A stretch of 64,000 nucleotides of DNA from an uncultured Candidatus Saccharibacteria bacterium (GTDB lineage: Bacteria; Patescibacteriota; Minisyncoccia; Phycocordibacterales; JAKFXT01), in assembly GCA_964541455.1 (NCBI GenBank), contig CAZIPS010000001.1, positions 1,709-65,708 of the forward strand, given 5' to 3'. The position numbers and the translations under genes were made by a program. Shown here piece by piece: positions 50,169-64,000 of this stretch. A model generated the notes under the pieces. It saw only the letters and a list, made by a program, of their open reading frames with translations. It had not been told where the DNA came from and did no database searches. Within the stretch, counting starts at the first letter, position 1, and every line of letters starts with the position of its first letter.

Positions 50169-51146
50169 ATGGACCAAGAAACACTTAAAAAATTTAAAGA
50201 AAATCCTAAAACTACGTATTTGGCGGAGCACTATATGAAGCTGCTCGCTGAAGAAGAAGAGGTGAAAGGCATGGTAAGTAGTGATCCAGCTCTTGCCCTT
50301 ATGGCAGAAGACGACCTTAAGCGCCTAAAAGAAGAATTAGCGGCGATACAAACACAAATGGAGATGATTGTAAAAGAGGAAGCGGCAGAGCAAACGTTTC
50401 CAAATGAAATTATTCTTGAGGTGCGCGCGGCAGCCGGCGGAGAAGAAGCGGCACTCTTTGCGGAAGAATTAGCGCGTATGTATCAACATTATGCTGAAAT
50501 ACGCGGATGGCAGACGCGTACAATCGATGAATCAAAAAGCCCACTTGGCGGGTATAAAGAAGCGGTGTTTGAAATAACGGGGCGAGGGGTATATGAAGAT
50601 CTTCGTTTTGAAACGGGAGTACATCGGGTACAGCGTATTCCGGGTACCGAAAAAAATGGGCGTATACACACTTCTACCGCTTCAGTAGTAATCCTTCCTA
50701 TTCCTAAGAAATCACTTATTCAAATAAACCCCGCAGATATTGAAATGGAATTTTCGCGTTCAGGCGGTGCAGGGGGGCAAAATGTAAACAAAGTTGAAAC
50801 AGCCGTACGACTTATTCACACACCAACAGGGATTGATGCACGTTCGACTTCAGAGCGTAGTCAACTTAAAAACCGCGAAAAGGCTATGGCGATACTTTCA
50901 GCTAAACTTCAAATGGCAAAAGATGCGGAAGATGCCCTAGCGATTTCTGCTGATCGTAAAAGTCAGGTGGGAACAGGGGATCGTTCAGAAAAGATCCGAA
51001 CCTATAATTTCCCTCAAGACCGTATCACCGATCATCGTATTAGGGAGTCGTGGCACAATCTCCCAAAGATTATGTCGGGTGAACTGGATACTATTGTTGA
51101 GGCATTAAAAACAAAGGAGCATGGGGATTCTGATTTTGACGAATAA
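50169..51146 (+). CDS. prfA: peptide chain release factor 1
   Basis: GGQ motif [24 protein letters not shown]. Stop-recognition tripeptide PGT (RF1-type PxT, not the SPF of RF2). Confidence 0.85.
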
Positions 51147-51164
51147 AGGGCTATACTATTTGTA

Positions 51165-51896
51165 ATGCCTTTTTTAAAACAGCATCCAAAAGGATTTAAG
51201 GTGCTTCTGCTCATTGTCGCTGCACTACTATTAAGTCTCTACCTTTTTTTGCATAACGCCGGAGCCCTGTTTTCTACTGGAAATTTTTTCTTTGGGGGAC
51301 GTTTTTATGATTTAAACAAGGCAATGTTTTTCTACGATTTGGCATTGAAACAAAACCCAAGTCAGAGTGGGGTGCATTACCAAATGGGGCGTATTTACTT
51401 TTTGAATGCTGATTTTGATAGTGCGATTGAGGAAATAAATAAAGAAATTGCACTTTACCCCGATTTTAAACGTTCATATTATATTCGTGGCTTAGTGTAT
51501 GGGTATCAGAAAGATTTTAAAAAAGCTGAGGCAGACTTCCTCACGTTTTTGGCTTGGAAGCCCGACAGCTGGGCGGGGCATAACGATCTCTCGTGGGTGT
51601 ATTTTCAAGAGGGGGATTTTGTTAATGCTGCAAAATACGCCAAAGAAGGGCTGGTACAGAACCCAGATAATCCATGGCTTTTAAATTCGTTAGGCATAGC
51701 TTTGTTAAATCAAAAAAAGTATAAGGAAGCGGAAGAAGCGCTTTCTAGGGGATTGAGTATTTTTAAAACATTACCACCTGAAGTGTGGGGAAGGGCGTAT
51801 CCAGGGAATAACAGTCAAATTTATGATGAAGGGTATAATGCGACCCTAAAGGTAATTGAGAAAAATCTAGCACTGGCCAAGAAAGCTGGAAATTAA
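51165..51896 (+). CDS. membrane-anchored TPR-repeat protein
   Basis: N-terminal TM helix, then about 5 TPR-like repeats (YQMGRIYFLNADFDSAIEEINKEIALYPD..., NSLGIALLNQKKYKEAEEALSRG). Confidence 0.55.
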   Translation: MPFLKQHPKGFKVLLLIVAALLLSLYLFLHNAGALFSTGNFFFGGRFYDLNKAMFFYDLALKQNPSQSGVHYQMGRIYFLNADFDSAIEEINKEIALYPDFKRSYYIRGLVYGYQKDFKKAEADFLTFLAWKPDSWAGHNDLSWVYFQEGDFVNAAKYAKEGLVQNPDNPWLLNSLGIALLNQKKYKEAEEALSRGLSIFKTLPPEVWGRAYPGNNSQIYDEGYNATLKVIEKNLALAKKAGN

Positions 51897-51962
51897 TAGT
51901 GGATAACGGCCTAGGGCGTTTCTTTCTATGTTATTATTAACAACATAGGCTTACTATGCAGT

Positions 51963-53006
51963 ATGAATAAAAGATTTTTTTTGCTAGGCATACCACTCCT
52001 CTTCTCCTTCTTATTTATTGTTGATATGTATGTGGGGGAAACTCGCTCGCCTGGTACTTCTTCAGAGGTTGCTTTCAGCTCATTTTCTCCAGTGGGCGAG
52101 GGAGGAGGTAGTTCGCTTCCTGCATCATGTGAATCGAATTACCAGCACGACGCCTCTGATTGTACGGTTTCTGTAAGTGCAAGTCCGAATCCTATTACTA
52201 CACCTGGAGGGGACACCACAAAACTTTCATGGACGTTTAACCAATATGGACCTAGTACAGGATATATGACAAGTTATCTTGCTGGTGGGTGGTACTGGGA
52301 CCAATTTATGTCACCTTATTCTTGCACAATTACAGGCCCTGGAGGAAAAACAGTATTTATGAACGGGGCAGTTACGGGTAGTATGGATACCCCAGTTTTG
52401 ACGGATGATACTACATACCAAGTTACTTGCCGATCACTTGAGAATGCTCCACATCCTCAATACAACTATTACGATTATCCTTCTGGACCATACACTGTTC
52501 GTGTTTCTGTACCAAAGCAGTGTTCTTGTAATTCAGTACCTAATAGTTGTGGTATGACTAACCCAGGACTCATTAGGTGTGGTAGCACTGCAGCCTGTCC
52601 AGTACCTGCTCCAAATGATAATGTATGCGCGAATCCTGCCATCTCGATTGGTCTTCCAGGTGGAACCCCCGTAACGACTGGCGGCCCAACGGGAGGCACT
52701 CCTTCTGGGGGAGGTACTCCAACAACAGGAACTACTCCTACTGACCCTCCCGTATATGATCAAACAGTACCTAAAGGTGGAACGTGTACTATACAGTGGG
52801 ACGCCGCTCCAGCCACCAAATGTAGGATTACGGGCCCTGGAGTAAGTCAGAATGTAGGAGTGTCGGGGACTTTCACGACTCCAAGAATAGGGGTAGATAC
52901 TGTAGGATCGGCAATGTTTACTCTCACTTGCTACAATGGAAATACCGTTGCTTCATATGCAAACTTCGCCTGCCGCCTCCCTGCAATTATTAAGGAAACT
53001 AACTAG
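51963..53006 (+). CDS. secreted Cys/Thr/Gly/Pro-rich hypothetical protein
   Basis: Signal/anchor MNKRFFLLGIPLLFSFLFIV. At least 14 Cys. Low-complexity linker TGGPTGGTPSGGGTPTTGTTPTDPP. Two C/T-rich modules. Confidence 0.45.
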   Translation: MNKRFFLLGIPLLFSFLFIVDMYVGETRSPGTSSEVAFSSFSPVGEGGGSSLPASCESNYQHDASDCTVSVSASPNPITTPGGDTTKLSWTFNQYGPSTGYMTSYLAGGWYWDQFMSPYSCTITGPGGKTVFMNGAVTGSMDTPVLTDDTTYQVTCRSLENAPHPQYNYYDYPSGPYTVRVSVPKQCSCNSVPNSCGMTNPGLIRCGSTAACPVPAPNDNVCANPAISIGLPGGTPVTTGGPTGGTPSGGGTPTTGTTPTDPPVYDQTVPKGGTCTIQWDAAPATKCRITGPGVSQNVGVSGTFTTPRIGVDTVGSAMFTLTCYNGNTVASYANFACRLPAIIKETN

Positions 53007-53107
53007 TTTGTAGGTCTAAAGCAATCCGTTTTTAGATAAGAATGGGTTGTTTTTACCCCCTGTTGCCTTACAGGAGACTTTCTGCTAAAGTACTGGGGTT
53101 ATATCTT

Positions 53108-53821
53108 ATGGAACAAAAGACTAATTCAAATCCACTTGTCGAAGCCCTTTTTAAGGCAGGGGCTCATTTTGCCTACGGTAAAACCCGCCGTCACCCTTCA
53201 GTATCTCCTTTCATTTTTGGTGCTAAAAACAGAGTTGAAATTTTTGATCTCGAAGCAACTTCAACCGCCTTTGCTGTAGCTGCTGATGTAGTGCGCACTC
53301 TTGGTAAAGAAGGGAAAATGATTCTTTTTGTGGGTGGTAAAAGTGAGGCCCGCGAAACAGTGGCAAGTGAAGCAGGTAAGGCTTCTCAGCCATATGTAGC
53401 AGGGCGATTCATTGGGGGAACGCTTACTAATTTTCCTCAGATTCGAAAGCGTATTGAAAAACTCGAACAGCTTCTTGCTGAAAAAGAGGGCGGGGAACTT
53501 AATCGCTATACAAAAAAGGAGCGCCTACTTATCGATCGTGATATTGCTCGTCTTACTAAAGACTTTGGGGGGATTGTCTCAATGAAGCATTTACCAGCGG
53601 CAGTAGTAGTTGTTGACCCTAAACGTGAGTATAATGTGGTGCGTGAGGCAACTCAGCTTAAGATTCCAGTTATTGCACTTCTTAACTCTGACTGTAATTT
53701 AAAGGAAGTAACGTATCCTGTTCCAGGAAATGATTCCTTGAAGAGCAGTATCGCCTTTTTCCTTAAGGAGATGGCAGAAGCTTATCTTGAGGGTAAGAAA
53801 GCAGGTACTGCCGCTCTCTAA
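53108..53821 (+). CDS. rpsB: 30S ribosomal protein S2
   Basis: LFKAGAHFAYGKTRRHPSVSPFIFGAKNRVEIFDLE...ILFVGGK...VVVVDPKREYNVVREA. The track ORF starts at 53042, but the Met at 53108 gives the canonical N-terminus. Confidence 0.9.
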   Translation: MEQKTNSNPLVEALFKAGAHFAYGKTRRHPSVSPFIFGAKNRVEIFDLEATSTAFAVAADVVRTLGKEGKMILFVGGKSEARETVASEAGKASQPYVAGRFIGGTLTNFPQIRKRIEKLEQLLAEKEGGELNRYTKKERLLIDRDIARLTKDFGGIVSMKHLPAAVVVVDPKREYNVVREATQLKIPVIALLNSDCNLKEVTYPVPGNDSLKSSIAFFLKEMAEAYLEGKKAGTAAL

Positions 53822-53878
53822 TCCTTTTAGGAGAAATAGTTTTATAATTATTGGACGTTGTTTGTAATGTTTTGATAT

Positions 53879-54457
53879 ATGATCACCACAGAATTGATAA
53901 AAGAATTACGTGATAAGACCGGAGTTTCTATTATGCAGTGTAAAAAGGCACTTGAAGAAACAAATGGAGACATGGATAAGGCACTTATTGTGCTACATAA
54001 AAAAAGTGGTGAAATTGCAGCAAAGAAAGGAGATCGAGATCTAGGTTCTGGAGCAGTAGGTATGTACCTTCACGCTTCAGGCACTGTGGGGTCAATGATT
54101 TTATTACAAAGCGAAACAGATTTCGTTTCAAAAAATGAGGAGTTTCGTACCCTCGCACGTGATATTGCTATGCATGTTGCTGCAACCGCTCCTACATATC
54201 TAAAAAATGCTGATATTCCAGATGATGCTAAAGCAACAGCACGTGAGGTGTTTGCGAAGGAGGCGGAAGGAAAGCCGGCTGACATGATCGAGAAGATTAT
54301 AGAAGGAAAGATGCAAGCTTATTTTAAGGAGAAGGTGTTACTTGAGCAGTCTTTTATTAAAAACCCTGAAGTTACTATTCAAGGCTTAATCGACCAAGCG
54401 GTACAGAAATTCGGTGAGCGTGTAGAAGTTGCACAATTTGTGCGATTCTCTGCCTAA
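53879..54457 (+). CDS. tsf: elongation factor Ts (short form)
   Basis: N-terminal UBA-like ITTELIKELRDKTGVSIMQCKKALEETNGDMDKA. Dimerisation core. Confidence 0.85.
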   Translation: MITTELIKELRDKTGVSIMQCKKALEETNGDMDKALIVLHKKSGEIAAKKGDRDLGSGAVGMYLHASGTVGSMILLQSETDFVSKNEEFRTLARDIAMHVAATAPTYLKNADIPDDAKATAREVFAKEAEGKPADMIEKIIEGKMQAYFKEKVLLEQSFIKNPEVTIQGLIDQAVQKFGERVEVAQFVRFSA

Positions 54458-54463
54458 ACTGCC

Positions 54464-54892
54464 ATGGTAGTTACCTACCTTTTCTTTGTTTCGCTCCTCG
54501 GTATCATTGTACTCCTTTCACTTAAGGTGTGGGAATTGAAGCGAGGATCAAAACCTTTTTCTCTTTTTCGGTATAAACTTGACCTTGTCATGAGGCGATA
54601 TACTGATAGGCTTAAGCACTACGCTTCTTTTTTAAATACCAAAGCATTGCGCCTTGTTCTGGCCTATGTGGTAGCGCGTGTAAGTCAGGGGGTGAGTAAT
54701 ACAGTGGTTAAACTTAAGAACACCACCTTTTTTAAAAAGGTACGGGGTAAGATTATTCCAGATAGTCATAATTCTCCTGTTTCGGCATTTCTTCGTGATG
54801 TTGCAGAGTTTAAAAGCGCTGCAGCTGGAGAAAAGCCCGCCGTACTTGAGGAGGAGTTGAATAAAGTTCAAAAAGATAGTACAAATAGCTAA
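54464..54892 (+). CDS. hypothetical protein with N-terminal TM helix
   Basis: 142-aa ORF. No motif. Confidence 0.3.
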   Translation: MVVTYLFFVSLLGIIVLLSLKVWELKRGSKPFSLFRYKLDLVMRRYTDRLKHYASFLNTKALRLVLAYVVARVSQGVSNTVVKLKNTTFFKKVRGKIIPDSHNSPVSAFLRDVAEFKSAAAGEKPAVLEEELNKVQKDSTNS

Positions 54893-54894
54893 TT

Positions 54895-54967
54895 GCCACC
54901 TTAGCTCAGTTGGTAGAGCAACTCACTTGTAATGAGTAGGTCCCCAGTTCAAGCCTGGGAGGTGGCT
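54895..54967 (+). tRNA. tRNA-Thr (anticodon UGU)
   Basis: Cloverleaf: acceptor gccacct/aggtggc, D-arm gctc-agttggtag-agc, anticodon arm actca-cTTGTAa-tgagt (anticodon TGT), T-arm cccag-ttcaagc-ctggg. No encoded CCA. Confidence 0.8.
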
Positions 54968-54977
54968 CAGAAATTTA

Positions 54978-55019
54978 TATAAGTGTACCATTTGTAGGCC
55001 TGCAAATGGTACACTTATA
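54978..55019. repeat. perfect 17-bp inverted repeat (8-bp spacer) between tRNA-Thr and the HNH gene
   Basis: tataagtgtaccatttg-taggcctg-caaatggtacacttata. No adjacent U-run, so not a canonical terminator. Overlaps the first in-frame ATG (55006) of the HNH ORF. Confidence 0.7.
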
Positions 55020-55023
55020 CCAT

Positions 55024-55461
55024 ATGAATAAATGTATTTCTTGTAATAAAGAGCTTCTATTACGGCACCAACAGAAATATTGTTCAAATAAGTGTCAGAA
55101 TGATCAGCAATTTAATCAATATATAAAAGATTGGAAGCAGGGTAAAAAAGATGGGAATAGGGGAATTATTGCTAAAAACATATCCCGCCATATTAAGAGA
55201 TATCTGATCGAGAAATACGGTGAGCGTTGTTCTAAGTGTTTTTGGAATTGTAGAAATAAGAAAACTAAGATTGTTCCTCTAGAGATAGATCATATAGACG
55301 GGATAGCTGAAAATAATCAAGAATCAAATTTGAGATTATTATGCCCAAATTGCCACTCACTTACGTTTACATTTAGAAATTTAAATTTTGGTAATGGAAG
55401 GTTTTGGCGTAAAGAAAAATATATAAAAAATAATGTGAAGCAAATAAGTAGTAATCCTTGA
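55024..55461 (+). CDS. free-standing HNH endonuclease
   Basis: N-terminal Cys4 (CISC...CSNKC) and C-terminal HNH motif EIDHIDG...NLRLLCPNCHS. GC about 32%, below genome average. Start taken at 55024 (MNKCISC); the track ORF starts at 55006 inside the palindrome. Confidence 0.6.
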   Translation: MNKCISCNKELLLRHQQKYCSNKCQNDQQFNQYIKDWKQGKKDGNRGIIAKNISRHIKRYLIEKYGERCSKCFWNCRNKKTKIVPLEIDHIDGIAENNQESNLRLLCPNCHSLTFTFRNLNFGNGRFWRKEKYIKNNVKQISSNP

Positions 55462-55539
55462 TCAATCACCAAGTGGTTTTAAAAGTTTTTATTTAGGTAG
55501 AGGTTGTTGCTATACTAGAAGTACTTTTAACAAAGTTTT

Positions 55540-56841
55540 TTGTTCATGGCTCAACCTGAAGAAGCACATAACTCACCTACTATTTTCCCAAAAGGGTTTC
55601 TTTGGGGATCGGCCACCTCTTCTCATCAGGTAGAGGGGAACGTGCAAAATGACTGGATAGCTTGGGAAAAGGAACATGCTGCACGCTTAGCTAGCGAAGC
55701 AAAAAATAAATGGGCGTCATGGCAACAAAAAAAGTTTCCTGAAATGTTTAATATTGAAAACTATATTTCAGGGGAAGGTTGCGATCAATTTAATCGCTAT
55801 GAAGAGGACTTTGATTTGGCCAAAAACTTGGGACACAATGCTCATCGCTTTTCTATAGAATGGTCTCGCATTGAACCAGAAGAAGGTGAATTTAATATGG
55901 AGGCAATTGAGCACTATCGAAATGTTCTTCTTGCCTTAAAAAGTCGAGGGCTAGAACCTTTTGTAACACTTTGGCATTGGCCTAATCCTATATGGATAGG
56001 GCAAATGGGGGCGTGGGAGAATAAAAAGACAGTGACTTATTTCCTGCGCTATGCTGAACGCATGTTACGTGAGTATAAGGATCTAGTTACTTTTTGGGTA
56101 CCACTGAATGAGCCGGGGACTGAAGTGTCGCTTGGATATTTATTTGGCAATCAGCCACCCGGGCTTAAAAGTAGTGTTGCAGCAAATAAGGCGTTCAAGA
56201 ATCTGATGGAAGTTCAAAGGGGGACGTATGCGCTCGCCAAATCCATTAACGCTAATTTCAATGTGGGTTGTTCACATTTTATGTTTTATTGGCGGCCGTA
56301 CAATAAGTTACCTTGGAATATTTTAGCTTCTAAAATAATTGGCTACTTTGCCGACCGAAGGTTTTTTAAGGTATTCAACGACTATAGTGATTTTTTCGGA
56401 GTCCAATACTACCAACCCTTTTTTGTGAATTTAAAAATCGGAGGGAAATTCAAGGGTATACTTGAAAATAAACAGATAAATGAAGAGCAGAGTGATTTGG
56501 GTTGGCAGATATTTCCTGAGGGTATATATCATGTATTAAAAAAGGCTGCGAAAGGAGGGAAGCCGATTTATATAACTGAAAACGGTATTGCAGATAAAGA
56601 CGATAGTATGCGCGGTAAATTTATCAAAGAACATCTTTATTGGGTAAATCGGGCTATTAAGGACGGTGTAGATATACGCGGTTATTTCTATTGGTCGCTT
56701 ATAGATAATTTTGAGTTTGTGGAATTACGTGGTTTTTGGCCACGCTTTGGACTTATTGAAGTTGACTACAAAACCAAGAAACGCACCATTCGACCTTCAG
56801 CATACGCATATCGCGATATAATAAAACAGTCACTTATATGA
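55540..56841 (+). CDS. GH1-family beta-glucosidase
   Basis: N-terminal GH1 signature FPKGFLWGSATSSHQVEGN. Acid/base LNEP. Nucleophile ITENG. Confidence 0.85.
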   Translation: MFMAQPEEAHNSPTIFPKGFLWGSATSSHQVEGNVQNDWIAWEKEHAARLASEAKNKWASWQQKKFPEMFNIENYISGEGCDQFNRYEEDFDLAKNLGHNAHRFSIEWSRIEPEEGEFNMEAIEHYRNVLLALKSRGLEPFVTLWHWPNPIWIGQMGAWENKKTVTYFLRYAERMLREYKDLVTFWVPLNEPGTEVSLGYLFGNQPPGLKSSVAANKAFKNLMEVQRGTYALAKSINANFNVGCSHFMFYWRPYNKLPWNILASKIIGYFADRRFFKVFNDYSDFFGVQYYQPFFVNLKIGGKFKGILENKQINEEQSDLGWQIFPEGIYHVLKKAAKGGKPIYITENGIADKDDSMRGKFIKEHLYWVNRAIKDGVDIRGYFYWSLIDNFEFVELRGFWPRFGLIEVDYKTKKRTIRPSAYAYRDIIKQSLI

Positions 56842-57746
56842 TAGACGGCAGCGCTATTTTCTTTCTTTCAATACTACTCGTTTGTTTAGGGCAGCTTGGT
56901 AATGCGCTTATTGTGCTTGTTGATAAGCATATTGTCACCAATACTTCGGTGACGCGTCCTGGAGTCTATGCTTTTTTTGTAAGTATTATTTCTGGAGCGG
57001 TGGTTGTATTACTTCCTTTTGGGGTAGTGCATATGCCGAGCCCTATGACGATTTTCCTTTCTCTTGATTTGGGGTTTATTTTTATAGGTTCTATTATTCT
57101 TCTGTATCGGGCGCTTAAACACGCTAATGCAACAGATGTGATTGCATGGCTTACTGCCATTTCAACACTCTCCACTTTTATTTTTGCGGCTCTTTTTCTC
57201 GATGAGACATTACCAAAAACTTTTCCCTTAGCACTTTTTTTCATTCTTGTCGGCATGCTTCTTGTTGGGCATTTTAGATTCTATGCTCGCTCTTTTAAGC
57301 AGGTGGTTGGTTCGGGAGTACTTTTTGGACTTTCGGTAGTCATGCTCAAGTTACTTTTTTCACAAATCTCATTTGTGGATGCCTTTTTCTGGTCACGTAT
57401 GGGTAATGTGGTAGCGGCACTTTCTCTGCTACTTTTCCCTTCGATTCGCAAACATCTTTTTACTATAAGCCGCAATACTTCACACCAAACAGGGTTACTC
57501 ATTGTTGGAAACCGTATTTTGGGGGGAGTAGCATTTCTAAGTGTGCTCTATGCACTCAAGTTGGGTTCTGCTTCAATTGTGAATGCACTCTCGTCACTTC
57601 AGTTCGTGTTTATCTTTGTACTTATTTTTGTATTTAGACGTTTTGTACCAGAGCTGTATCGTCATGAGTTTCGCAAGGGGCACGTGCTTCATAAGGTGGC
57701 AGCGATGTGTTTTATTATCATGGGATTCTTTATATTATTTGCATAA
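56838..57746 (+). CDS. polytopic membrane protein, DMT/EamA-like transporter candidate
   Basis: 302 aa with about 10 TM helices in two 5-TM halves. Confidence 0.35.
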   Translation: MIDGSAIFFLSILLVCLGQLGNALIVLVDKHIVTNTSVTRPGVYAFFVSIISGAVVVLLPFGVVHMPSPMTIFLSLDLGFIFIGSIILLYRALKHANATDVIAWLTAISTLSTFIFAALFLDETLPKTFPLALFFILVGMLLVGHFRFYARSFKQVVGSGVLFGLSVVMLKLLFSQISFVDAFFWSRMGNVVAALSLLLFPSIRKHLFTISRNTSHQTGLLIVGNRILGGVAFLSVLYALKLGSASIVNALSSLQFVFIFVLIFVFRRFVPELYRHEFRKGHVLHKVAAMCFIIMGFFILFA

Positions 57747-57758
57747 TATCTTTAATCT

Positions 57759-58757
57759 ATGTTGAAGCGAAGTATTAAAATTGTCCTCTATACTTTGCTG
57801 GTGCTAATAATTGTTGGGGGAGTACTTTCTTACCGTAAAAAACCAACAACTATTACTTACGGAGTTTCTTTTAGTAAGTTTCATGCAGACGAGCTTAAGC
57901 TTCCTTGGGCGATTGTTTTTGAAGCTTTGGTCTCTGAAATGCAGGTTAAACATTGGAGACTTTCAGCGCATTGGCCAATGGTTGAATCCACCAAAGGGGT
58001 ATTTTCTTTTAATGAGTTAGATTACCAACTACGACGAGTAAAGGAAGAACATGGAGACGTGGTGCTTGCAGTTGGGCGTCGTCTTCCGGGGTGGCCAGAA
58101 TGTCATGTGCCAGAGTGGGCAAAAGGTCTCTCGTGGGAGGATCAAAAGAAGGAGATTCTCACCTATCTTACAAAGGTAGTTGAGCGCTACAAAGACCATA
58201 GTGAAGTACTTTATTGGCAAGTTGAAAATGAACCGTATCTTACAGTATTTGCCCATGATTATTGCGGTGATCTTGATAAGGATTTTCTTAAAGAAGAGGT
58301 TGCTCTAGTAAAACGTCTTGATCCATCGCGCAAAGTACTCGTTACTGATAGTGGGAACCTCGGTCTGTGGAGTGGTGCGTGGAGTACAGGGGATATATTT
58401 GGTACAAGTATGTACTTATATCTTTGGAATCCAAACTTCGGTCAAGTTAAAACTATCTACCAGCCATTTGTGTATCGTATCAAAAACAATATGATGTCGC
58501 TTTTATTTGGAAAGCGTGAAAGTCTGCTCATTGAATTATCGCTTGAGCCATGGCTTGTGCACCCAATCACTGAAACCCCTCTTTCTGTTCAGAAAGAACG
58601 CATGACCCCGACAATGTTTGATGAGGCGGTCGCCTTTGCCAAAGATACTCGTTTTGAAAAGCAGTATCTTTGGGGAGCGGAATGGTGGTTTTATATGAAG
58701 CAGCAGGGAGACGGCACGTATTGGGAAAAAGCCAAGGCAATATTTGCTCCAAAGTAA
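57759..58757 (+). CDS. membrane-anchored putative glycoside hydrolase (clan GH-A TIM-barrel-like)
   Basis: N-terminal TM anchor. YWQVENEPY is a clan GH-A acid/base NEP motif. LIELSLEPW is a possible nucleophile region. Confidence 0.35.
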   Translation: MLKRSIKIVLYTLLVLIIVGGVLSYRKKPTTITYGVSFSKFHADELKLPWAIVFEALVSEMQVKHWRLSAHWPMVESTKGVFSFNELDYQLRRVKEEHGDVVLAVGRRLPGWPECHVPEWAKGLSWEDQKKEILTYLTKVVERYKDHSEVLYWQVENEPYLTVFAHDYCGDLDKDFLKEEVALVKRLDPSRKVLVTDSGNLGLWSGAWSTGDIFGTSMYLYLWNPNFGQVKTIYQPFVYRIKNNMMSLLFGKRESLLIELSLEPWLVHPITETPLSVQKERMTPTMFDEAVAFAKDTRFEKQYLWGAEWWFYMKQQGDGTYWEKAKAIFAPK

Positions 58758-58817
58758 TACATAGATTTATGAGGGCTTTTTTGCTAAAGTGGGGCACCAA
58801 GAGGGGGAAGTGAGACT

Positions 58818-60350
58818 ATGGAATATGTAAAAACACCGTATTTTAAAGTGGGAAGGGCGAGTGAGCTTTCAGGTGCTGACTATGTCCTTTATCGTTTTTT
58901 GGAAATGTTGCCAGGGCTTCTTTCTTGGGCAACACTCCTTTTTGTGGTAGTGATGTCATTTGTGCGACCCGTGCTTGCAGCGTACTTTATTATCGCTTTC
59001 GATCTTTATTGGCTCCTTAAGACGGTGTATCTTTCAATACACTTACGTCACAACTTTAAGCGTATTACGTACAATCTTTCGGTTAATTGGAATGAGCGTT
59101 TACAGAAATTAAAATATGAGCATGTTACGCATCTTATTTTGTTACCTTTTTATAAAGAAGGCTACGAGGTGGTGAAGGTATGTCTCGAGGGGCTTAAAAC
59201 AACACATTACGATACTAAAAAGTTTTTGATCGTGCTTGGAACAGAGGAGCGTGCGGGAAGTGAGGCGCAGGAAGTAGCACGAAATATTGAAGCAGCATAT
59301 AAAGATTATTTTGGTGGCTTTCTAATTACGACGCACCCTAAAGATGTGCCGGGTGAAATGGCGGGAAAGGGTTCAAATATTGCGTACATGGCTGAAGAAG
59401 CCAGAAAGCTCCTGATTGATAAAGGAAGCATTTCTTATGAAGAAGTGATGGTGTCTGCTTTTGATATCGATACAGTAGTGTATCCTGATTACTTTGCTTG
59501 TCTTACATGGTACTTCCTCACTGTGCGTGATCCTTACAAGACGTCGTATCAACCCGTGCCTTTCTACAATAACAATATTTGGAATGCACCAATGATTTCC
59601 CGTGTTGTTGCGGGCTCTTCGACATTCTGGCAAATGATGCAGCAGGAGCGCCCTGAGAAACTTGCAACATTTTCATCTCACTCAGTACCTTTTAAAACAC
59701 TTTACGAAATTGGGTATTGGCAAAAGAATATGGTGTCTGAAGATTCACGTATCTATTGGAACTTACTTTTGGCGCATGATGGTGATTATCGTGTTACGCC
59801 ACTGTCTTATCCAGTATCAATGGATGCCAATGTTGCAGCAACCTTTTGGCAAACAGTAAAAAATGTTTATAAACAGCACCGTCGTTGGATGTATGGGGTG
59901 GAGAACCTTCCTTATATATTTTTTGGATTTATTAAAAATAAAAAGATACCTTTTTGGACGAAGCTTCGAGTAGGGGCGGTGCAGCTTGAGGGATTTTGGT
60001 CGCTTGCCACCAACCCCATTATGATATTCCTTTTGGGCTGGTTACCAGTGATGGTGGGGGGGTCTATTTTTAACAAATCACTCCTTTCATACAACCTTCC
60101 AATTTTAACTCGTAACATTATGACGATTGCTATGGCAGGACTTATTCTTTCCGCAATTATTTTCCTTTCTTTTGTGCCTAAGAAACCTGATGAAAAAGTA
60201 AGAACATCGAAGATGGGAATGGTACTACAGTGGGTATTAGTACCTTTTACTATTATCACTTTTGGTGCACTTCCTGGACTTGATTCCCAAACACGTCTTA
60301 TGCTTGGGAAGTATATGGGATTTTGGGTTACCCCAAAACGTCGCGATTAA
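58818..60350 (+). CDS. processive GT2 beta-glycosyltransferase, cellulose/chitin-synthase-like
   Basis: Two N-terminal and at least four C-terminal TM helices flank a GT-A domain with K-G-S-N (KAGNxN-like), DxD (FDIDT), SEDSR (TED-like) and the hallmark QxxRW (KQHRRWMYG). Confidence 0.65.
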   Translation: MEYVKTPYFKVGRASELSGADYVLYRFLEMLPGLLSWATLLFVVVMSFVRPVLAAYFIIAFDLYWLLKTVYLSIHLRHNFKRITYNLSVNWNERLQKLKYEHVTHLILLPFYKEGYEVVKVCLEGLKTTHYDTKKFLIVLGTEERAGSEAQEVARNIEAAYKDYFGGFLITTHPKDVPGEMAGKGSNIAYMAEEARKLLIDKGSISYEEVMVSAFDIDTVVYPDYFACLTWYFLTVRDPYKTSYQPVPFYNNNIWNAPMISRVVAGSSTFWQMMQQERPEKLATFSSHSVPFKTLYEIGYWQKNMVSEDSRIYWNLLLAHDGDYRVTPLSYPVSMDANVAATFWQTVKNVYKQHRRWMYGVENLPYIFFGFIKNKKIPFWTKLRVGAVQLEGFWSLATNPIMIFLLGWLPVMVGGSIFNKSLLSYNLPILTRNIMTIAMAGLILSAIIFLSFVPKKPDEKVRTSKMGMVLQWVLVPFTIITFGALPGLDSQTRLMLGKYMGFWVTPKRRD

Positions 60351-60353
60351 TAT

Positions 60354-61247
60354 ATGGACCCTCTTTCACGTAAAAAAAGAATAACGTATTTTATTTTCTT
60401 TAGTATCGTTTTTTTTGCGGTGGTGCCCTTATTCATTTTCTATGCTCAGGGGTATCGATTTAATTTAAAAGATGTAGTCAAAGTTTCTGAAACAGGGGGG
60501 CTTTATGTAAGTACTGATCAGTCAGGGATTGAGATTTATGTGAACAATGTACTTGAGAAAAAAACAAGTATCATTCAAAAAACAGTCTTTGTACAAGATC
60601 TTCGTCCGGGGACATATGATATACGCGTATCTAAAAATGGTCTCCAAACATGGAGCAAGCGTCTTAAGGTGTTTCCTGAGCTTGTAACCGAAGCGCGTAC
60701 ATTCCTCATTAAAGATCATCCAGAATTAGTTTCTATTCCTTTGTATCTCTCTCAAGCGACGAGTACAGGAAGTAGTGTTGCTACAACTACCAAAAAAGCA
60801 GTCAAGAATCCTGAATACATGCTTGCACTTAAGGCATTCATGACACCACTTTCAACTGCTCCTACCACCACCAAAAAAGTTGCCTCAACTACGGATGAAT
60901 TTTTGCCTGTACAAAAGTTAGTGTTTGAAAATACTCATGGAGTACTCATCGCAACATGGAAGGGTGAGCAGGATGCTATACCAAGTTATTTCTGTGAAAA
61001 CACTGTGTGCAAATCTAGTATTGAAGTTAAAGCAGGGGGTCCGGTGCTTGCGTATGATCTGTTTCCAGGACGTGATGATCTACTCATCGTGCAACTAGCC
61101 AAGGGGGTGTATGTTGTAGAAATTGATGATCGGTCTCCACAGAATAAGGAAACAATTGTTGAGGGAGAGGGTTATGAGTTTCGTATCAAAGAAAGCGGGG
61201 TACTTTACTTGAAACACGGAGTCGATATCTATAGTGTGGCGCTTTAA
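60354..61247 (+). CDS. membrane-anchored PEGA-domain protein
   Basis: N-terminal TM helix. IYVNNVLEKKTS...LRPGTYDIRVSKNGLQTWSKRLKV matches the PEGA consensus (P-x-G-x-Y-x-V-x-V-x-K-x-G-Y). Confidence 0.45.
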   Translation: MDPLSRKKRITYFIFFSIVFFAVVPLFIFYAQGYRFNLKDVVKVSETGGLYVSTDQSGIEIYVNNVLEKKTSIIQKTVFVQDLRPGTYDIRVSKNGLQTWSKRLKVFPELVTEARTFLIKDHPELVSIPLYLSQATSTGSSVATTTKKAVKNPEYMLALKAFMTPLSTAPTTTKKVASTTDEFLPVQKLVFENTHGVLIATWKGEQDAIPSYFCENTVCKSSIEVKAGGPVLAYDLFPGRDDLLIVQLAKGVYVVEIDDRSPQNKETIVEGEGYEFRIKESGVLYLKHGVDIYSVAL

Positions 61248-61264
61248 AAACAGAAAGTGGAATT

Positions 61265-62050
61265 ATGGCCTTATTCGGCTATAATACGCACATGACTGCT
61301 CAAAATACAGAAGGAACAGAGGGGAAGGGGCACCTGCACCCAATAACGCTTATGCAGCGCGACATTGCGCGTATTTTTCGTGGACTAGGATTTGCTGTTG
61401 CTGATGGGCCGGAAATAGAGACCGAGTTCTATAACTTTGATGCACTTAATATTCCTGAGTGGCACCCAGCGCGTGATATGTGGGATACCTTTTGGCTTAA
61501 ACCGCTTAATGCACGGAAATTGCTTCGTACCCACACAAGTCCTGTGCAGATCCGCTACATGCAGAGTCACAAGGACAAAATGCCAATCGCTATGGTAACT
61601 CCTGGCAAGGTGTATCGTCACGAAGCAACTGACGCTACACACGAAGCTCAGTTTTATCAGTTAGAAGGGCTTATGGTAGGAGAGGGAGTGTCACTTGCTC
61701 ACTTTAAGGGAGTGCTCGAGCATTTCTTTAAAGAATTTTTTGGGGTACCAGTAGCTATCAGACTTCGCCCTAGTTATTTCCCATTTGTGGAGCCGGGTGT
61801 TGAAGCTGATGTAACGTGTGTGAAGTGTGAAGGTCGTGGTTGCACTGTTTGTAAGAATACCGGATGGATAGAACTTATGGGGGCTGGCATGGTCCATCCT
61901 AAAACACTTGAAGCTGGTGGTATTGATCCTCGTAAGTACACAGGGTTTGCCTTTGGCATGGGATTAGACCGTTTGGGGGTTATAAAGTACGGTATCCCCG
62001 ATGTCAGGCTTCTCTACCAGGGAGATCTTCGTTTGGTTAACCAGTTTTAA
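61265..62050 (+). CDS. pheS: phenylalanine--tRNA ligase alpha subunit (short form, catalytic core only)
   Basis: Class II motifs: motif 1 region HPITLMQRDIARIF, motif 2 FYNFDALNIPEWHPARDMWDTFWL, motif 3 GMGLDRLGVIKYGIPDVRL. 261 aa, lacks the usual N-terminal coiled-coil extension. Confidence 0.85.
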   Translation: MALFGYNTHMTAQNTEGTEGKGHLHPITLMQRDIARIFRGLGFAVADGPEIETEFYNFDALNIPEWHPARDMWDTFWLKPLNARKLLRTHTSPVQIRYMQSHKDKMPIAMVTPGKVYRHEATDATHEAQFYQLEGLMVGEGVSLAHFKGVLEHFFKEFFGVPVAIRLRPSYFPFVEPGVEADVTCVKCEGRGCTVCKNTGWIELMGAGMVHPKTLEAGGIDPRKYTGFAFGMGLDRLGVIKYGIPDVRLLYQGDLRLVNQF

Positions 62051-64000
62051 TGTGTATGCTGATCTCACGAGCGTGGCTTCAAACATTTTTTGATACTGAA
62101 ATTCCTAAGGCTACAGATTTGGCTGTGGGGCTTACGAATCATGCTTTTGAAATTGAGGAAGTGAAAGCGGTGGGAGATGACACTATTTTTGATGTAAAAG
62201 TATTACCCAATCGTGCGCATGATTGTCTTTGTCACTATGGTGTAGCTAAAGAGGTTTCTGCTATTTTTAATATTCCCCTAAATCGGAAACCATTTGAGAA
62301 AAAGCTGCAGGTTTTTCCAGAATCAAATGCCTGGACAGTGGAAGTGGCAACTTCCAAAGTAAAACGTTTTCATGGAGCAGTGGTGCGTGGGGTGAAAGTA
62401 AAAGAATCTCCTAAATGGCTCCGCGAGCGGATCGAAGCTATGGGAGGAAAATCAATAAACAATGTGGTGGATATCACTAACTTTGTAATGTTTGACATAG
62501 GGCAACCAATGCATGCCTTTGATGCTAAAAAGCTGAGTGAAAAAGAGGGGGGATATAAGTTTGTTGTACGGGAAAGTATTGATGGTGAGAAAACACAAAC
62601 ATTGGACGGAGCAGAACGAGTGATTCCAAGTGGTGTGCTACTTATCACTGATGGTAATACAGATGGCAAGAATATTTTAGGGATCGGTGGCATTAAAGGA
62701 GGTATGAGTTCAAGTATCACGGAAGATACTACGGACATTATTTTGGAGGCGGCCAACTTTGATGCAGAGACTATTCGTCGCGGCAGTAAGCTGCTTGATA
62801 TTCGCACCGATGCCTCCAAGCGTTTTGAAAATGGCTTAGCTCCTGAACTTCCAAGCTATGCAGTCGCGTATGCTGTAGAGCTCTTGGAAAAAGAAGCCAA
62901 GGGTGAGAACTTTGTGGTTGAAGGCGCGGTTGATTATAAAGATTATGTTGAGTATCAATATAAACTTGGTGTTTCAACTAAAGAAGTAAACACACTTCTC
63001 GGCACAGAACTTAAAGAAGATGAGGTTGGTGTTATTTTGAAACGCCTTGGCTTTTCGCACAAAAAATTAGTGGTTGAAGAAGCACTTCGAAATGCAATTC
63101 CAACAATACTTAATGCTGCATATAAAAGAGATAGTTCTATGCGTGTTGATCCGCCAAGATTTTTCAGTTGCTCGTCCCTCGTGAGCTATCTTTACGTAGA
63201 GGCGGGGGTATATATGCCTAGTTATTCGGTTGATAAATATGTTTTTAGTGAAAAGATTGGCAGGGAGGATCTTACCTATGGAGATTTAATTTTTGCGAAT
63301 ACAGGTGAGGGCAAAATATATTATGAGTCCGTCCAGTTTTTAAAAGGAACAAAAGTTCCAGAGGGTGTTGATCATGTAGGAATGTATGTTGGGGAGGGGA
63401 AGGTGTTGCACGCAACAAAAAGTAAAAATGGAGTGGTGATTGAGGATTTAGTAACAAGTGACCAGTTCAAAAATAGTATTGGTTATGGGCGCGTGGCTGA
63501 TCAAAAGGAAACTCGTTTCCTAGTCACTAGCCCTTTTGAAAGACTTGATGTGCGTATCAAAGAGGATCTTATTGATGAAATCGGTCGTATCTATGGACTT
63601 GAACATATCCCCTCAATTCTTCCAGAGCTACATAGAGAGGTGGAGATAAACAAAGAATTTTATTATGTAAATAAAATTCGCACAGTTCTTACTGATGCAG
63701 GGTTCTCTGAAGTGCACACCTATGCTATGGGAGAAAATGGGAAGGTTGAGCTACAGAATCCTATTGCAGGGGATAAGAACTTTATGCGCGAATCTCTTTT
63801 GCCTGGATTAACTAAGAGTTTCATGTTAAATGCACATAACGTACCCTTACTAGGATTAGAGGCAGTAAAGATTTTTGAAATTGGGAAAGTTTTTAAAGAA
63901 AATGAAGAACATCTCTCTCTTGCTTTTGCTGCGGTAGTTCCTGTAGGTGGAAAGAAAAAAGGGGAGAAGGAAAAACAAATACTTGAGGAAGTCAAGAATG
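62050..64000 (+). CDS. pheT: phenylalanine--tRNA ligase beta subunit (3'-truncated by window edge) carrying an internal NlpC/P60-like domain
   Basis: Not in the ORF track because it has no stop within the window. Manual translation from ATG 62050 (overlapping the pheS TAA) is open to 64000. B1 domain, B3_4 domain (NFVMFDIGQPMHAFD), B5 domain (LGTELKEDEVGVILKRLGF ... TSPFERLDVRIKEDLIDEIGRIYGLEHIP), then B6/7. About 140 aa inserted inside B5 (63121-63510) carry the NlpC/P60 motifs SCSS, GDLIF, HVGMYVGEGKVLHA. Confidence 0.8.
   Translation, partial: MCMLISRAWLQTFFDTEIPKATDLAVGLTNHAFEIEEVKAVGDDTIFDVKVLPNRAHDCLCHYGVAKEVSAIFNIPLNRKPFEKKLQVFPESNAWTVEVATSKVKRFHGAVVRGVKVKESPKWLRERIEAMGGKSINNVVDITNFVMFDIGQPMHAFDAKKLSEKEGGYKFVVRESIDGEKTQTLDGAERVIPSGVLLITDGNTDGKNILGIGGIKGGMSSSITEDTTDIILEAANFDAETIRRGSKLLDIRTDASKRFENGLAPELPSYAVAYAVELLEKEAKGENFVVEGAVDYKDYVEYQYKLGVSTKEVNTLLGTELKEDEVGVILKRLGFSHKKLVVEEALRNAIPTILNAAYKRDSSMRVDPPRFFSCSSLVSYLYVEAGVYMPSYSVDKYVFSEKIGREDLTYGDLIFANTGEGKIYYESVQFLKGTKVPEGVDHVGMYVGEGKVLHATKSKNGVVIEDLVTSDQFKNSIGYGRVADQKETRFLVTSPFERLDVRIKEDLIDEIGRIYGLEHIPSILPELHREVEINKEFYYVNKIRTVLTDAGFSEVHTYAMGENGKVELQNPIAGDKNFMRESLLPGLTKSFMLNAHNVPLLGLEAVKIFEIGKVFKENEEHLSLAFAAVVPVGGKKKGEKEKQILEEVKN

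Follow-up and report, generated by a model that had tools for sequence, protein, structure and literature searches.

An NlpC/P60-type cysteine peptidase domain predicted within the B5 domain of the phenylalanyl-tRNA synthetase beta subunit of Paceibacteria

Our analysis centers on pheT, the gene for the beta subunit of phenylalanyl-tRNA synthetase (PheRS), which lies at the end of a 64,000-nucleotide stretch of a Paceibacteria genome (candidate phyla radiation; contig CAZIPS010000001.1, positions 1,709 to 65,708), called the window below. Based on profile searches and structure prediction, the encoded PheT apparently contains a complete and catalytically competent NlpC/P60 domain, which splits its B5 domain into two halves. 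The features of the locus, with PheT residues counted in amino acids (aa) from its start, are these:

61265..62050, plus strand: pheS, 261 aa, the class II catalytic core alone without the N-terminal coiled-coil arm (open reading frame (ORF) and Pfam).
62050..64000, plus strand, continuing past the window end: pheT, the first 650 of 789 codons (ORF).
62362..62892, plus strand: B3/4 editing domain, residues 105-281 (Pfam B3_4, E 8e-53), with the QPxHAFD, LEAAxF and TDAS motifs kept.
62935..63072, plus strand: N-terminal half of B5, residues ~296-341, ending ...GVILKRLGFSHKKLV (Pfam, alignment to insert-free relatives, AlphaFold2 (AF2)).
63073..63510, plus strand: NlpC/P60 (MEROPS C40) insert in the B5 beta-hairpin, residues 342-487, ~146 aa (Pfam, AF2, Foldseek).
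63169..63171, plus strand: codon TGC of the catalytic Cys374, in FSCSS, invariant in 117 of 117 insert-bearing PheT.
63298..63372, plus strand: family-specific extra stretch of ~25 aa, residues 417-441, NTGEGKIYYESVQFLKGTKVPEGVD, directly before the catalytic His.
63373..63375, plus strand: codon CAT of the catalytic His442, in DHVGMY, likewise invariant (117/117).
63409..63411, plus strand: codon CAC of the third triad residue, His454, in VLHAT, invariant in the 117 embedded forms.
63511..63609, plus strand: C-terminal half of B5, residues 488-520, TRFLVTSPFERLDVRIKEDLIDEIGRIYGLEHI (Pfam B5 model positions 32-66 at residues 482-516).
63610..64000, plus strand: start of the B6/7 catalytic-like module (CLM; Pfam tRNA_synthFbeta, 520-626); the rest of it and B8 lie past the window.

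The product of pheS matches Pfam tRNA-synt_2d (E 2e-96), with the alignment beginning at model position 12. Its stop codon TAA (62048-62050) shares one nucleotide (nt) with the ATG of pheT at 62050 (TAATG), and this overlap suggests that the two genes are translationally coupled. Translation of 62050-64000 on the plus strand gives 650 residues with zero stops and zero frameshifts. A public protein of 789 aa, P0044, is 100% identical to the window PheT over these 650 residues, and since this full-length form exists in public data, we take the window ORF to reach B6/7 and B8. P0044 scores 415.2 bits against TIGR00472 (pheT_bact), above the equivalog cutoff of 402.65, which identifies it as a bona fide bacterial PheT, and it also bears FDX-ACB (B8); the partial copy in the window scores 354.9 bits with the same NCBIfam model. 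Domains B1, B3/4, B5, B6/7 (CLM) and B8 are thus present, and the gene adjoins pheS. B2, the tRNA_bind OB fold, is absent from the window PheT, where the TIGR00472 match opens at model position 157; homologue P0138 is one that does carry it.

Judging from alignments, the B3/4 editing-site motifs of the insert-bearing PheT look intact. Among 117 homologues, H155 never varies, and E233, T253 and S256 do so only rarely. The His of QPxHAFD, the Glu of LEAAxF and the Thr/Ala of TDAS presumably map to H265, E334, T354 and A356 of the E. coli beta subunit.

The Pfam B5 match on the window PheT falls into two separate stretches. In insert-free relatives '...RL.FSFEE' runs straight into 'KGGEFEVTAPFERLD' through a turn of ~7-8 residues, while alignment of the window PheT with three insert-free homologues places ~150 residues between 'GFS' and 'TRFLVTSPFERLD' of B5. 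Within this interval, Pfam NLPC_P60 (PF00877) matches residues 371-469 with an E-value of 1.3e-12 and 48.1 bits against a gathering score of 23, and the insert scanned alone reaches 53.6 bits (E range 1e-12 to 2e-14). NCBIfam assigns pheT_bact to the PheT flanks and the RipB, p60, RipD, RipA and MepS models to the insert. The 99 residues of the Pfam match cover 81 model positions. The extra stretch at 417-441 is highly conserved and is missing from one subclade of stand-alone homologues (described below). A Cys-His-His triad is given for PF00877 in PMC10318531, and the insert has all three residues. The Cys374 column is at least 90% conserved in a 43-row alignment of stand-alone modules, His442 is invariant in the stand-alone alignments, and the His454 position is Gln in a few stand-alone modules.

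Two AF2 models were built, one of the B5+insert module (229 aa, from a 43-sequence alignment) and one of full-length P0044 (from a 117-sequence alignment). The module was predicted with a mean local confidence (predicted local distance difference test, pLDDT) of 93.9 and a predicted template modelling (TM) score of 0.89; the full-length model has a pLDDT of 92.2, with the insert blocks at 89-97. In the predicted secondary structure the N-terminal half of B5 is a strand, two helices and a strand (304-341), followed by the inserted domain (342-487) and by a strand and a helix (488-515). Based on this order, the peptidase would take the place of the B5 beta-hairpin turn. At E <= 1e-3, Foldseek found 62 PDB matches for the module model, and all of the 50 listed were NlpC/P60-type or related cell-wall hydrolase chains. 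The best was the C. difficile autolysin Acd24020 (7CFL), with a target-normalized TM score of 0.90 and a root-mean-square deviation (rmsd) of 1.7 A; other top matches were the Nostoc and Anabaena gamma-D-Glu-L-diamino-acid endopeptidases (2EVR, 2HBW), MepS/Spr, CwlO, LytE and RipB. With the full-length model, Foldseek reached E 1e-47 for chains of bacterial PheT and, in a separate match, recovered 7CFL at TM 0.91; over both models the rmsd to 7CFL was 1.6-1.7 A. The predicted fold of the insert is therefore papain-like alpha+beta and non-permuted. One usual trait of NlpC/P60 proteins, an extracytoplasmic location, was not seen: the domain is internal to PheT, and stand-alone modules have no hydrophobic leader visible by eye. 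By the sequence and fold tests applied, the window protein belongs to both the bacterial PheT family and the NlpC/P60 family. The known editing folds (B3/4, YbaK, AlaX, DTD) gave no match to the insert in Pfam, NCBIfam or Foldseek searches, where every family found was of the NlpC/P60 superfamily, and no Hint or intein family appeared in the Pfam or NCBIfam output for the window PheT.

These results agree with the initial annotation of this DNA, made from the letters alone, on its structural claims. It had placed an NlpC/P60 domain inside B5 of PheT, and Pfam NLPC_P60 indeed scores above its cutoff within a split B5 in a protein family that passes TIGR00472. Its claim of a single in-frame gene holds over 650 codons without stop or frameshift and in the more than 100 independent clusters that share the architecture. 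The coordinates that it gave, 63121-63510, correspond to residues 358-487, the NlpC/P60 core, and the catalytic residues that it named are Cys374, His442 and His454, invariant in 117/117. It had also raised the question whether the insert is a folded excursion from B5, and AF2 builds B5 around the insert in full-length PheT with a pLDDT above 90.

The insert is widespread. A protein search of a 5.8-billion-protein collection with the PheT query was limited to the 120 best matches, of which 117 have PF00877 inside PheT, at 43-100% identity to the query. Among the organisms given as sources are Yonath-, Kaiser-, Campbell- and Pacebacteria, Paceibacterota and 'Patescibacteria group', and the names given by annotation pipelines are inconsistent ('PheT', 'PheT-related protein', 'C40 family peptidase', 'hypothetical'). 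In a genome scan with each GTDB species represented once, 326 stretches encoded a relative. The best 80 of these 326 loci were examined; all are from Patescibacteria, 72 of the 80 have the module embedded in a pheS-pheT pair, and the complete genome CP011215 is among those with an embedded module. Against 1.84 billion cluster representatives (50% identity clusters), the module profile matched 162 at E <= 1e-30, and almost all of these show the same domain arrangement. NCBI, JGI, ENA and Logan assemblies contribute more than 100 independent clusters with the in-frame architecture, and in these searches the members of the insert family all come from Paceibacteria-type Patescibacteria. Throughout a large clade of Paceibacteria, PheT normally carries the insert, with hundreds of database entries already. 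Whether other Patescibacteria share it had been left open by the initial annotation; the feature proved to be clade-wide in Paceibacteria, and the idea of a unique fusion is ruled out.

The NlpC core is about as conserved as B3/4 and more so than B6/7. In addition to the triad, Tyr358, Pro390, Asp395, Asp412 and Phe415 are invariant in the 117 insert-bearing PheT. Mean pairwise identity is 52% for the NlpC core, 53.5% for B3/4 and 36% for B6/7, and the most conserved segment is the C-terminal half of B5 (68%). Between the window and its relative L005 (87% identical), the ratio of nonsynonymous to synonymous substitution rates (dN/dS) comes to 0.056 in the insert and to 0.062 in B1+B3/4. The insert is under strong purifying selection.

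Two subtypes can be told apart by sequence. Subtype 1 has the canonical pattern 'FDCSS...PRxSxDQ' and comprises 170 PheT-size and 12 stand-alone proteins, whereas subtype 2 has 'FSCSS...PSxSxDK' or '...DQ' and comprises the window protein, 36 PheT-size, 41 stand-alone and 2 fusion proteins. In the window (63166-63237; residues 373, 391 and 396) the canonical Asp (of DCS), Arg (of PR) and Gln are replaced by Ser, Ser and Lys. The Asp and the Arg switch jointly in nearly all sequences (182 D-R-Q vs 79 S-S-K/Q), which would be the pattern expected if a salt bridge had been swapped out.

The module is separable from PheT, in both directions. Three near relatives, P0084, P0100 and P0135, encode a PheT of 602-616 aa whose B5 is continuous and lacks precisely the insert, at 58-63% identity over the alignable halves. 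Their loci share the gene order of the window (EamA, GH42-like, GT2, ~290-aa protein, pheS, pheT, gyrB) and probably represent a single loss event. This precise loss in near relatives indicates that the insert is dispensable for PheT. Conversely, when the insert by itself served as query, it matched 43 proteins of 149-239 aa at 41-60% identity, none of them of PheT size. These stand-alone proteins consist of both B5 halves with NlpC/P60 between them, open straight with the B5 strand (M..W.Y.VGLS) and are encoded by a ~190-230-aa gene at the pheT position, in the neighborhood release factor, rpsB, tsf, ..., GT2, ..., gyrB, thrS/proS, dnaE. The window itself carries, at 50169-64000, a conserved chromosomal block of release factor, TPR protein, rpsB, tsf, ..., GH1, EamA transporter, GH42-like, membrane GT2, PEGA-domain protein, pheS and pheT; the block recurs in L001, L004, L085, L086, L088, L089 and L094 with three PheRS architectures, followed by gyrB.

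Directly beside the stand-alone module gene lies the gene for a 380-aa protein made of a PheS catalytic core and FDX-ACB (B8), that is, a monomeric PheRS. The two genes are divergent and ~40 nt apart in L001-L004 and L076, and co-directional with a 4 nt overlap or a 4 nt gap in L085 and L086. Coordinates of the ~380-aa monomeric PheRS are:

L076:2809-3951, minus strand.
L085:4862-6004, plus strand.
L086:4857-5996, plus strand.
L001:4819-5961, minus strand.

The best solved match of this enzyme is human mitochondrial PheRS (E 2e-56, vs 8e-37 for bacterial PheS), and it has no B3/4 editing domain. It is widespread and well conserved: identity is 71% or more in each of its best 120 database clusters, most of which are unnamed or 'hypothetical'; the few named sources are Zambryski- and Nomurabacteria, Minisyncoccia and Paceibacterota. 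From these sequence matches, a mitochondrial-type monomeric PheRS appears to replace pheS-pheT in many Paceibacteria. Since the monomeric enzyme has replaced the heterotetramer and the module is kept at the pheT position, the stand-alone module looks like a remnant of pheT. In an unbootstrapped neighbor-joining tree, stand-alone modules fall into at least 3 clades nested among embedded ones, a pattern that does no more than suggest multiple independent reductions from PheT to the module.

We considered the module as an obligatory partner of the monomeric PheRS, and this was ruled out by L091, L092 and L093, where the enzyme has no module nearby. In L091 and L092 a free tRNA_bind (B2-like) gene precedes the monomeric PheRS gene, with gyrB directly after, and L093 has neither the module nor the tRNA_bind gene. 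The free B2-like OB-fold gene (L091:4610-5038 and L092:4416-4847, both plus strand; fused to PheRS in P0350, 506 aa) looks like a different PheT fragment retained after loss of the beta subunit. One stand-alone module, P0028 (L087:1-6669), is not beside any PheRS gene; a gene for a Mur ligase and one with a faint Acetyltransf_6 match lie ~3.5 kb upstream of it, on the opposite strand, and this cell-wall-flavored context may be coincidence.

A second peptidase-like gene accompanies the module. Downstream of pheT on the same strand lies a gene of ~175-200 aa for a Peptidase_C39_2-like (PF13529) protein, leaderless by eye and opening straight with its catalytic domain, which scores 44.7 (L005), 39.6 (L086), 33.6 (L001) and 43.9 bits (L081) against a cutoff of 24. 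Gln, Cys, His and Asp are kept in these C39_2-like proteins, with PYxSQ, ACG..C, xH and D in all three sequences compared. The C39_2-like genes are at:

L005:5616-6140, plus strand.
L086:6676-7254.
L001:6608-7219.
L081:3980-5182, as a fusion.

The gene is present in 42 of the 66 embedded loci with enough downstream sequence, within 1.5 kb in 39 of the 42 and often within less than 20 nt. In L005, the window's closest relative, it begins 131 nt past the pheT stop, and its position in our genome would be just beyond the window end. Among stand-alone loci it was found in 5 of 15, where it either follows the module as its own gene (L001-L003, L086) or is fused to it (L081); it is absent from all three insert-less loci. 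The L081 fusion is a 400-aa B5-NlpC/P60-C39_2 protein, flanked by genes for a Peptidase_S11 DD-carboxypeptidase, an MraY-like GT4, a CAP-domain protein, DUF218 and an M23 peptidase. Clusters P0169 and P0170 (392 and 397 aa) have the module at the N terminus and, judged by length, are probably the same fusion; the P0169 contig is only 1.9 kb long and its context is uninformative. The C39_2 partner had no useful sequence match in the PDB and no PHROG or NCBIfam match. C39_2 proteins are single-domain relatives of the leader-peptide-processing C39 peptidases (PMC10318531); PF13529 turns up in several phage endolysin papers (PMC8223927 and PMC12597775 among them), and a 'C39-like peptidase' in PMC3314691.

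Based on these observations, we tentatively favor the reading that the insert is an autonomous accessory C40 hydrolase carried on a B5 socket, which acts on peptidoglycan-type peptides together with the C39_2-like protein. The NlpC/P60 domain would have replaced the turn of the B5 beta-hairpin (the 'wing') in an otherwise normal beta subunit, and PheT would offer only B5 as a structural socket and co-expression, the insert itself having no part in aminoacylation or editing. The nucleophile would be Cys374, with His442 acting as the general base and His454 as the third, orienting residue. Every close relative in sequence or fold cleaves stem-peptide-type bonds, the nearest solved ones (Acd24020, the Nostoc/Anabaena enzymes, MepS, CwlO and RipB) being without exception peptidoglycan DL-endopeptidases; we therefore predict that the substrate is small, soluble and cytoplasmic, and that the bond cleaved in it, an amide or isopeptide, is of the gamma-D-glutamyl-diamino-acid (stem peptide) type. 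A cytoplasmic location is suggested by the insert being part of PheRS and by the lack of a visible leader in stand-alone forms. The enzyme would probably act in series with the presumably co-transcribed, leaderless C39_2-like cysteine peptidase, and its role could be the salvage or turnover of cell-wall-type peptides. Such hosts are generally described with minimal biosynthetic pathways (PMC8672522).

Several points weigh against this reading. The predicted substrate class rests on homology and on neighborhood evidence that is only partly consistent with it. Characterized P60-type enzymes are almost all extracytoplasmic, whereas a cytoplasmic enzyme is proposed here. No C39_2 gene lies within ~3 kb in 24 of the 66 embedded and 10 of the 15 stand-alone loci, and the context of a cell-wall gene cluster comes from a single locus, L081. 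Relative to P60 enzymes, the loss of Asp and Arg to Ser and Ser in the window's subtype could mean an altered specificity. Finally, the accessory-hydrolase reading gives no reason for PheT as host or for the stay of the stand-alone gene beside PheRS, and PheT as host is not accounted for by any of its rivals either.

The initial annotation had speculated that the fold might act on aminoacyl-tRNA esters, or alternatively might couple PheRS to cell-wall peptide metabolism. In its fuller form, the first idea is that the insert gives PheRS an additional site for editing or deacylation, or else works as an acyl-transferase of the LRAT kind, moving Phe from Phe-tRNA via a thioester to an acceptor; in monomeric-PheRS lineages, which lack B3/4, it would be a trans-acting factor. 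That the insert is physically part of PheRS and conserved there speaks for it, as does the B5+NlpC gene that stays adjoining, or translationally coupled to, the gene of a monomeric PheRS with no editing domain after PheT has been lost. With its winged-helix-type fold, B5 might bind nucleic acid, and LRAT, which gave a weak match in the Pfam output, is a papain-like Cys-His enzyme of the same superfamily that handles esters and thioesters. Nevertheless, the B3/4 editing motifs are intact in insert-bearing PheT, so that there is no editing gap to fill, and compensation for a degenerate B3/4 site is ruled out by their conservation. The insert has no likeness to editing folds, its best matches being peptidoglycan endopeptidases; close relatives manage without it, many monomeric-PheRS lineages have no module nearby, and the conserved partner is another peptidase, C39_2, rather than a tRNA-related protein. 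We regard action on aminoacyl- or peptidyl-tRNA esters as improbable, and the editing or deacylation role proposed at the outset was not borne out. The narrower proposal that B5+NlpC/P60 is a PheRS-associated catalytic subunit, a hydrolase or transferase on the tRNAPhe ester or one that uses Phe-tRNA or Phe-AMP as donor via a thioester, we hold to be slightly less probable still. If it were true, it would mean a new aminoacyl-tRNA synthetase (aaRS) quality-control step or a tRNA-dependent peptide or cell-wall modification in Paceibacteria, an activity that would be the sole remnant of PheT kept once PheRS turned monomeric. The cell-wall link fits better than editing, since there is the C39_2-like operon or fusion and one fusion in a cell-wall gene cluster; we infer this link from these data, and that part of the early speculation survives in such conditional form.

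Another possibility keeps the peptidases and changes their substrate. NlpC/P60 and C39_2 could be cytoplasmic proteases or peptide processors that act on ribosomal peptides or proteins, with PheT a mere carrier; they might remove leader peptides, as the bacteriocin-processing C39 peptidases do, or serve in deconjugation or in the processing of a specific protein, for example. C39 cuts double-glycine leaders within ABC transporters and has a near relative in the single-domain family C39_2 (PMC10318531), neither partner seems to have a leader and both keep full catalytic sets, and the Asp/Arg to Ser/Ser subtype suggests a departure from classical P60 specificity. Set against this, the loci examined have no precursor-peptide or transporter genes beside the module, the sequence and fold neighbors of the insert are all peptidoglycan peptidases, and the one fusion with informative context (L081) lies among cell-wall genes; we consider this pair of protein-directed proteases unlikely, if worth keeping in mind. 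That the insert is artefactual or non-functional, whether as a chimera, a decaying mobile insertion, an intein-like element or an inactive decoration, is hardly credible. Metagenome-assembled genomes can hold chimeras and the domain is dispensable in some relatives, yet more than 100 independent clusters and 72 of the best 80 genome loci share the architecture, the triad is invariant at a dN/dS of 0.056, and AF2 builds B5 around the insert at a pLDDT above 90. An assembly artefact or frameshift is ruled out by the continuous ORF together with this recurrence, and an intein or mobile insertion by the lack of a Hint match.

aaRSs are known to gain extra domains with editing or non-translational functions, and PheT of Paceibacteria is, as far as we found, one with an accreted accessory domain of a previously unreported type. 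A full-text literature search of 8 million papers and preprints, which covered few subscription-journal papers, found no paper on NlpC/P60 or C40 in connection with PheT, PheRS or B5, and none on a bacterial monomeric PheRS. The combination of PheT and NlpC/P60 thus seems previously undescribed, and the remark in the initial annotation that no known aaRS carries such a domain still stands after this search. The surprise is a conserved cysteine peptidase, catalytically intact by prediction, inside an aaRS. The module occurs in embedded, precisely deleted, free-standing and peptidase-fused forms, so it can be expressed alone and assayed. Such an enzyme may expose a cytoplasmic step of peptide or muropeptide processing in the very large, almost uncultured group of Patescibacteria or, less probably, reveal a new tRNA-linked activity.

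Compared with canonical bacterial PheT (1PYS/2IY5 of T. thermophilus, 3PCO of E. coli, 2RHQ of S. haemolyticus), the window protein shares the B1, B3/4, B5, B6/7, B8 order, the coupling to pheS, the TIGR00472 pass, the fold match at E 1e-47 and the editing motifs. It differs in the ~146-aa enzyme domain that interrupts B5, in the absence of B2 and in a partner PheS with no coiled coil. With the NlpC/P60 DL-endopeptidases (7CFL; 2EVR, 2HBW; 2K1G and 8XUD, both E. coli MepS/Spr; CwlO and LytE of B. subtilis; RipA and RipB of M. tuberculosis) the insert has in common the non-permuted fold and the Cys-His-His triad, and most family members also share the motifs PY..G, DCS, PR.S..Q, GDL.F, HVG.Y and HA. 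In contrast to these enzymes, it has no visible signal peptide, lipobox or SH3b/LysM domain, sits inside an essential cytoplasmic enzyme and has the extra ~25-aa stretch, and the window's subtype has Ser/Ser instead of Asp/Arg.

The nearest conceptual precedent is found in glutathionylspermidine synthetase/amidase of E. coli and trypanothione synthetase-amidase, where a papain-like cytoplasmic amidase (CHAP / NlpC-P60 superfamily) is joined to an ATP-dependent ligase acting on a gamma-glutamyl metabolite (PMC10318531). In these ligase-amidases the CHAP amidase is terminal and both activities address one metabolite, whereas the PheT insert is an internal P60 domain with no evident substrate in common with PheRS. 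The editing and trans-editing modules of aaRSs (PheT B3/4, CtdA, YbaK, AlaX, DTD) are likewise hydrolases attached to, or encoded beside, an aaRS, and CtdA is described in passages of PMC12268091 and PMC12449066 as a stand-alone B3/4-like derivative of a PheT domain; the fold and chemistry of our insert are unrelated to theirs, and the resident B3/4 is retained. The monomeric PheRS of Paceibacteria, in turn, resembles the mitochondrial enzyme (human FARS2, 3CMQ/3TUP) as a ~380-aa protein of catalytic core and B8. A 2010 review gave the heterotetramer for all known prokaryotes and held the monomer to be unique to mitochondria (PMC3275996). The Paceibacteria form, in contrast to the mitochondrial enzyme, is encoded on bacterial chromosomes, within the conserved rpsB-tsf ... 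gyrB neighborhood, and it bears on the origin of the mitochondrial-type form of the enzyme.

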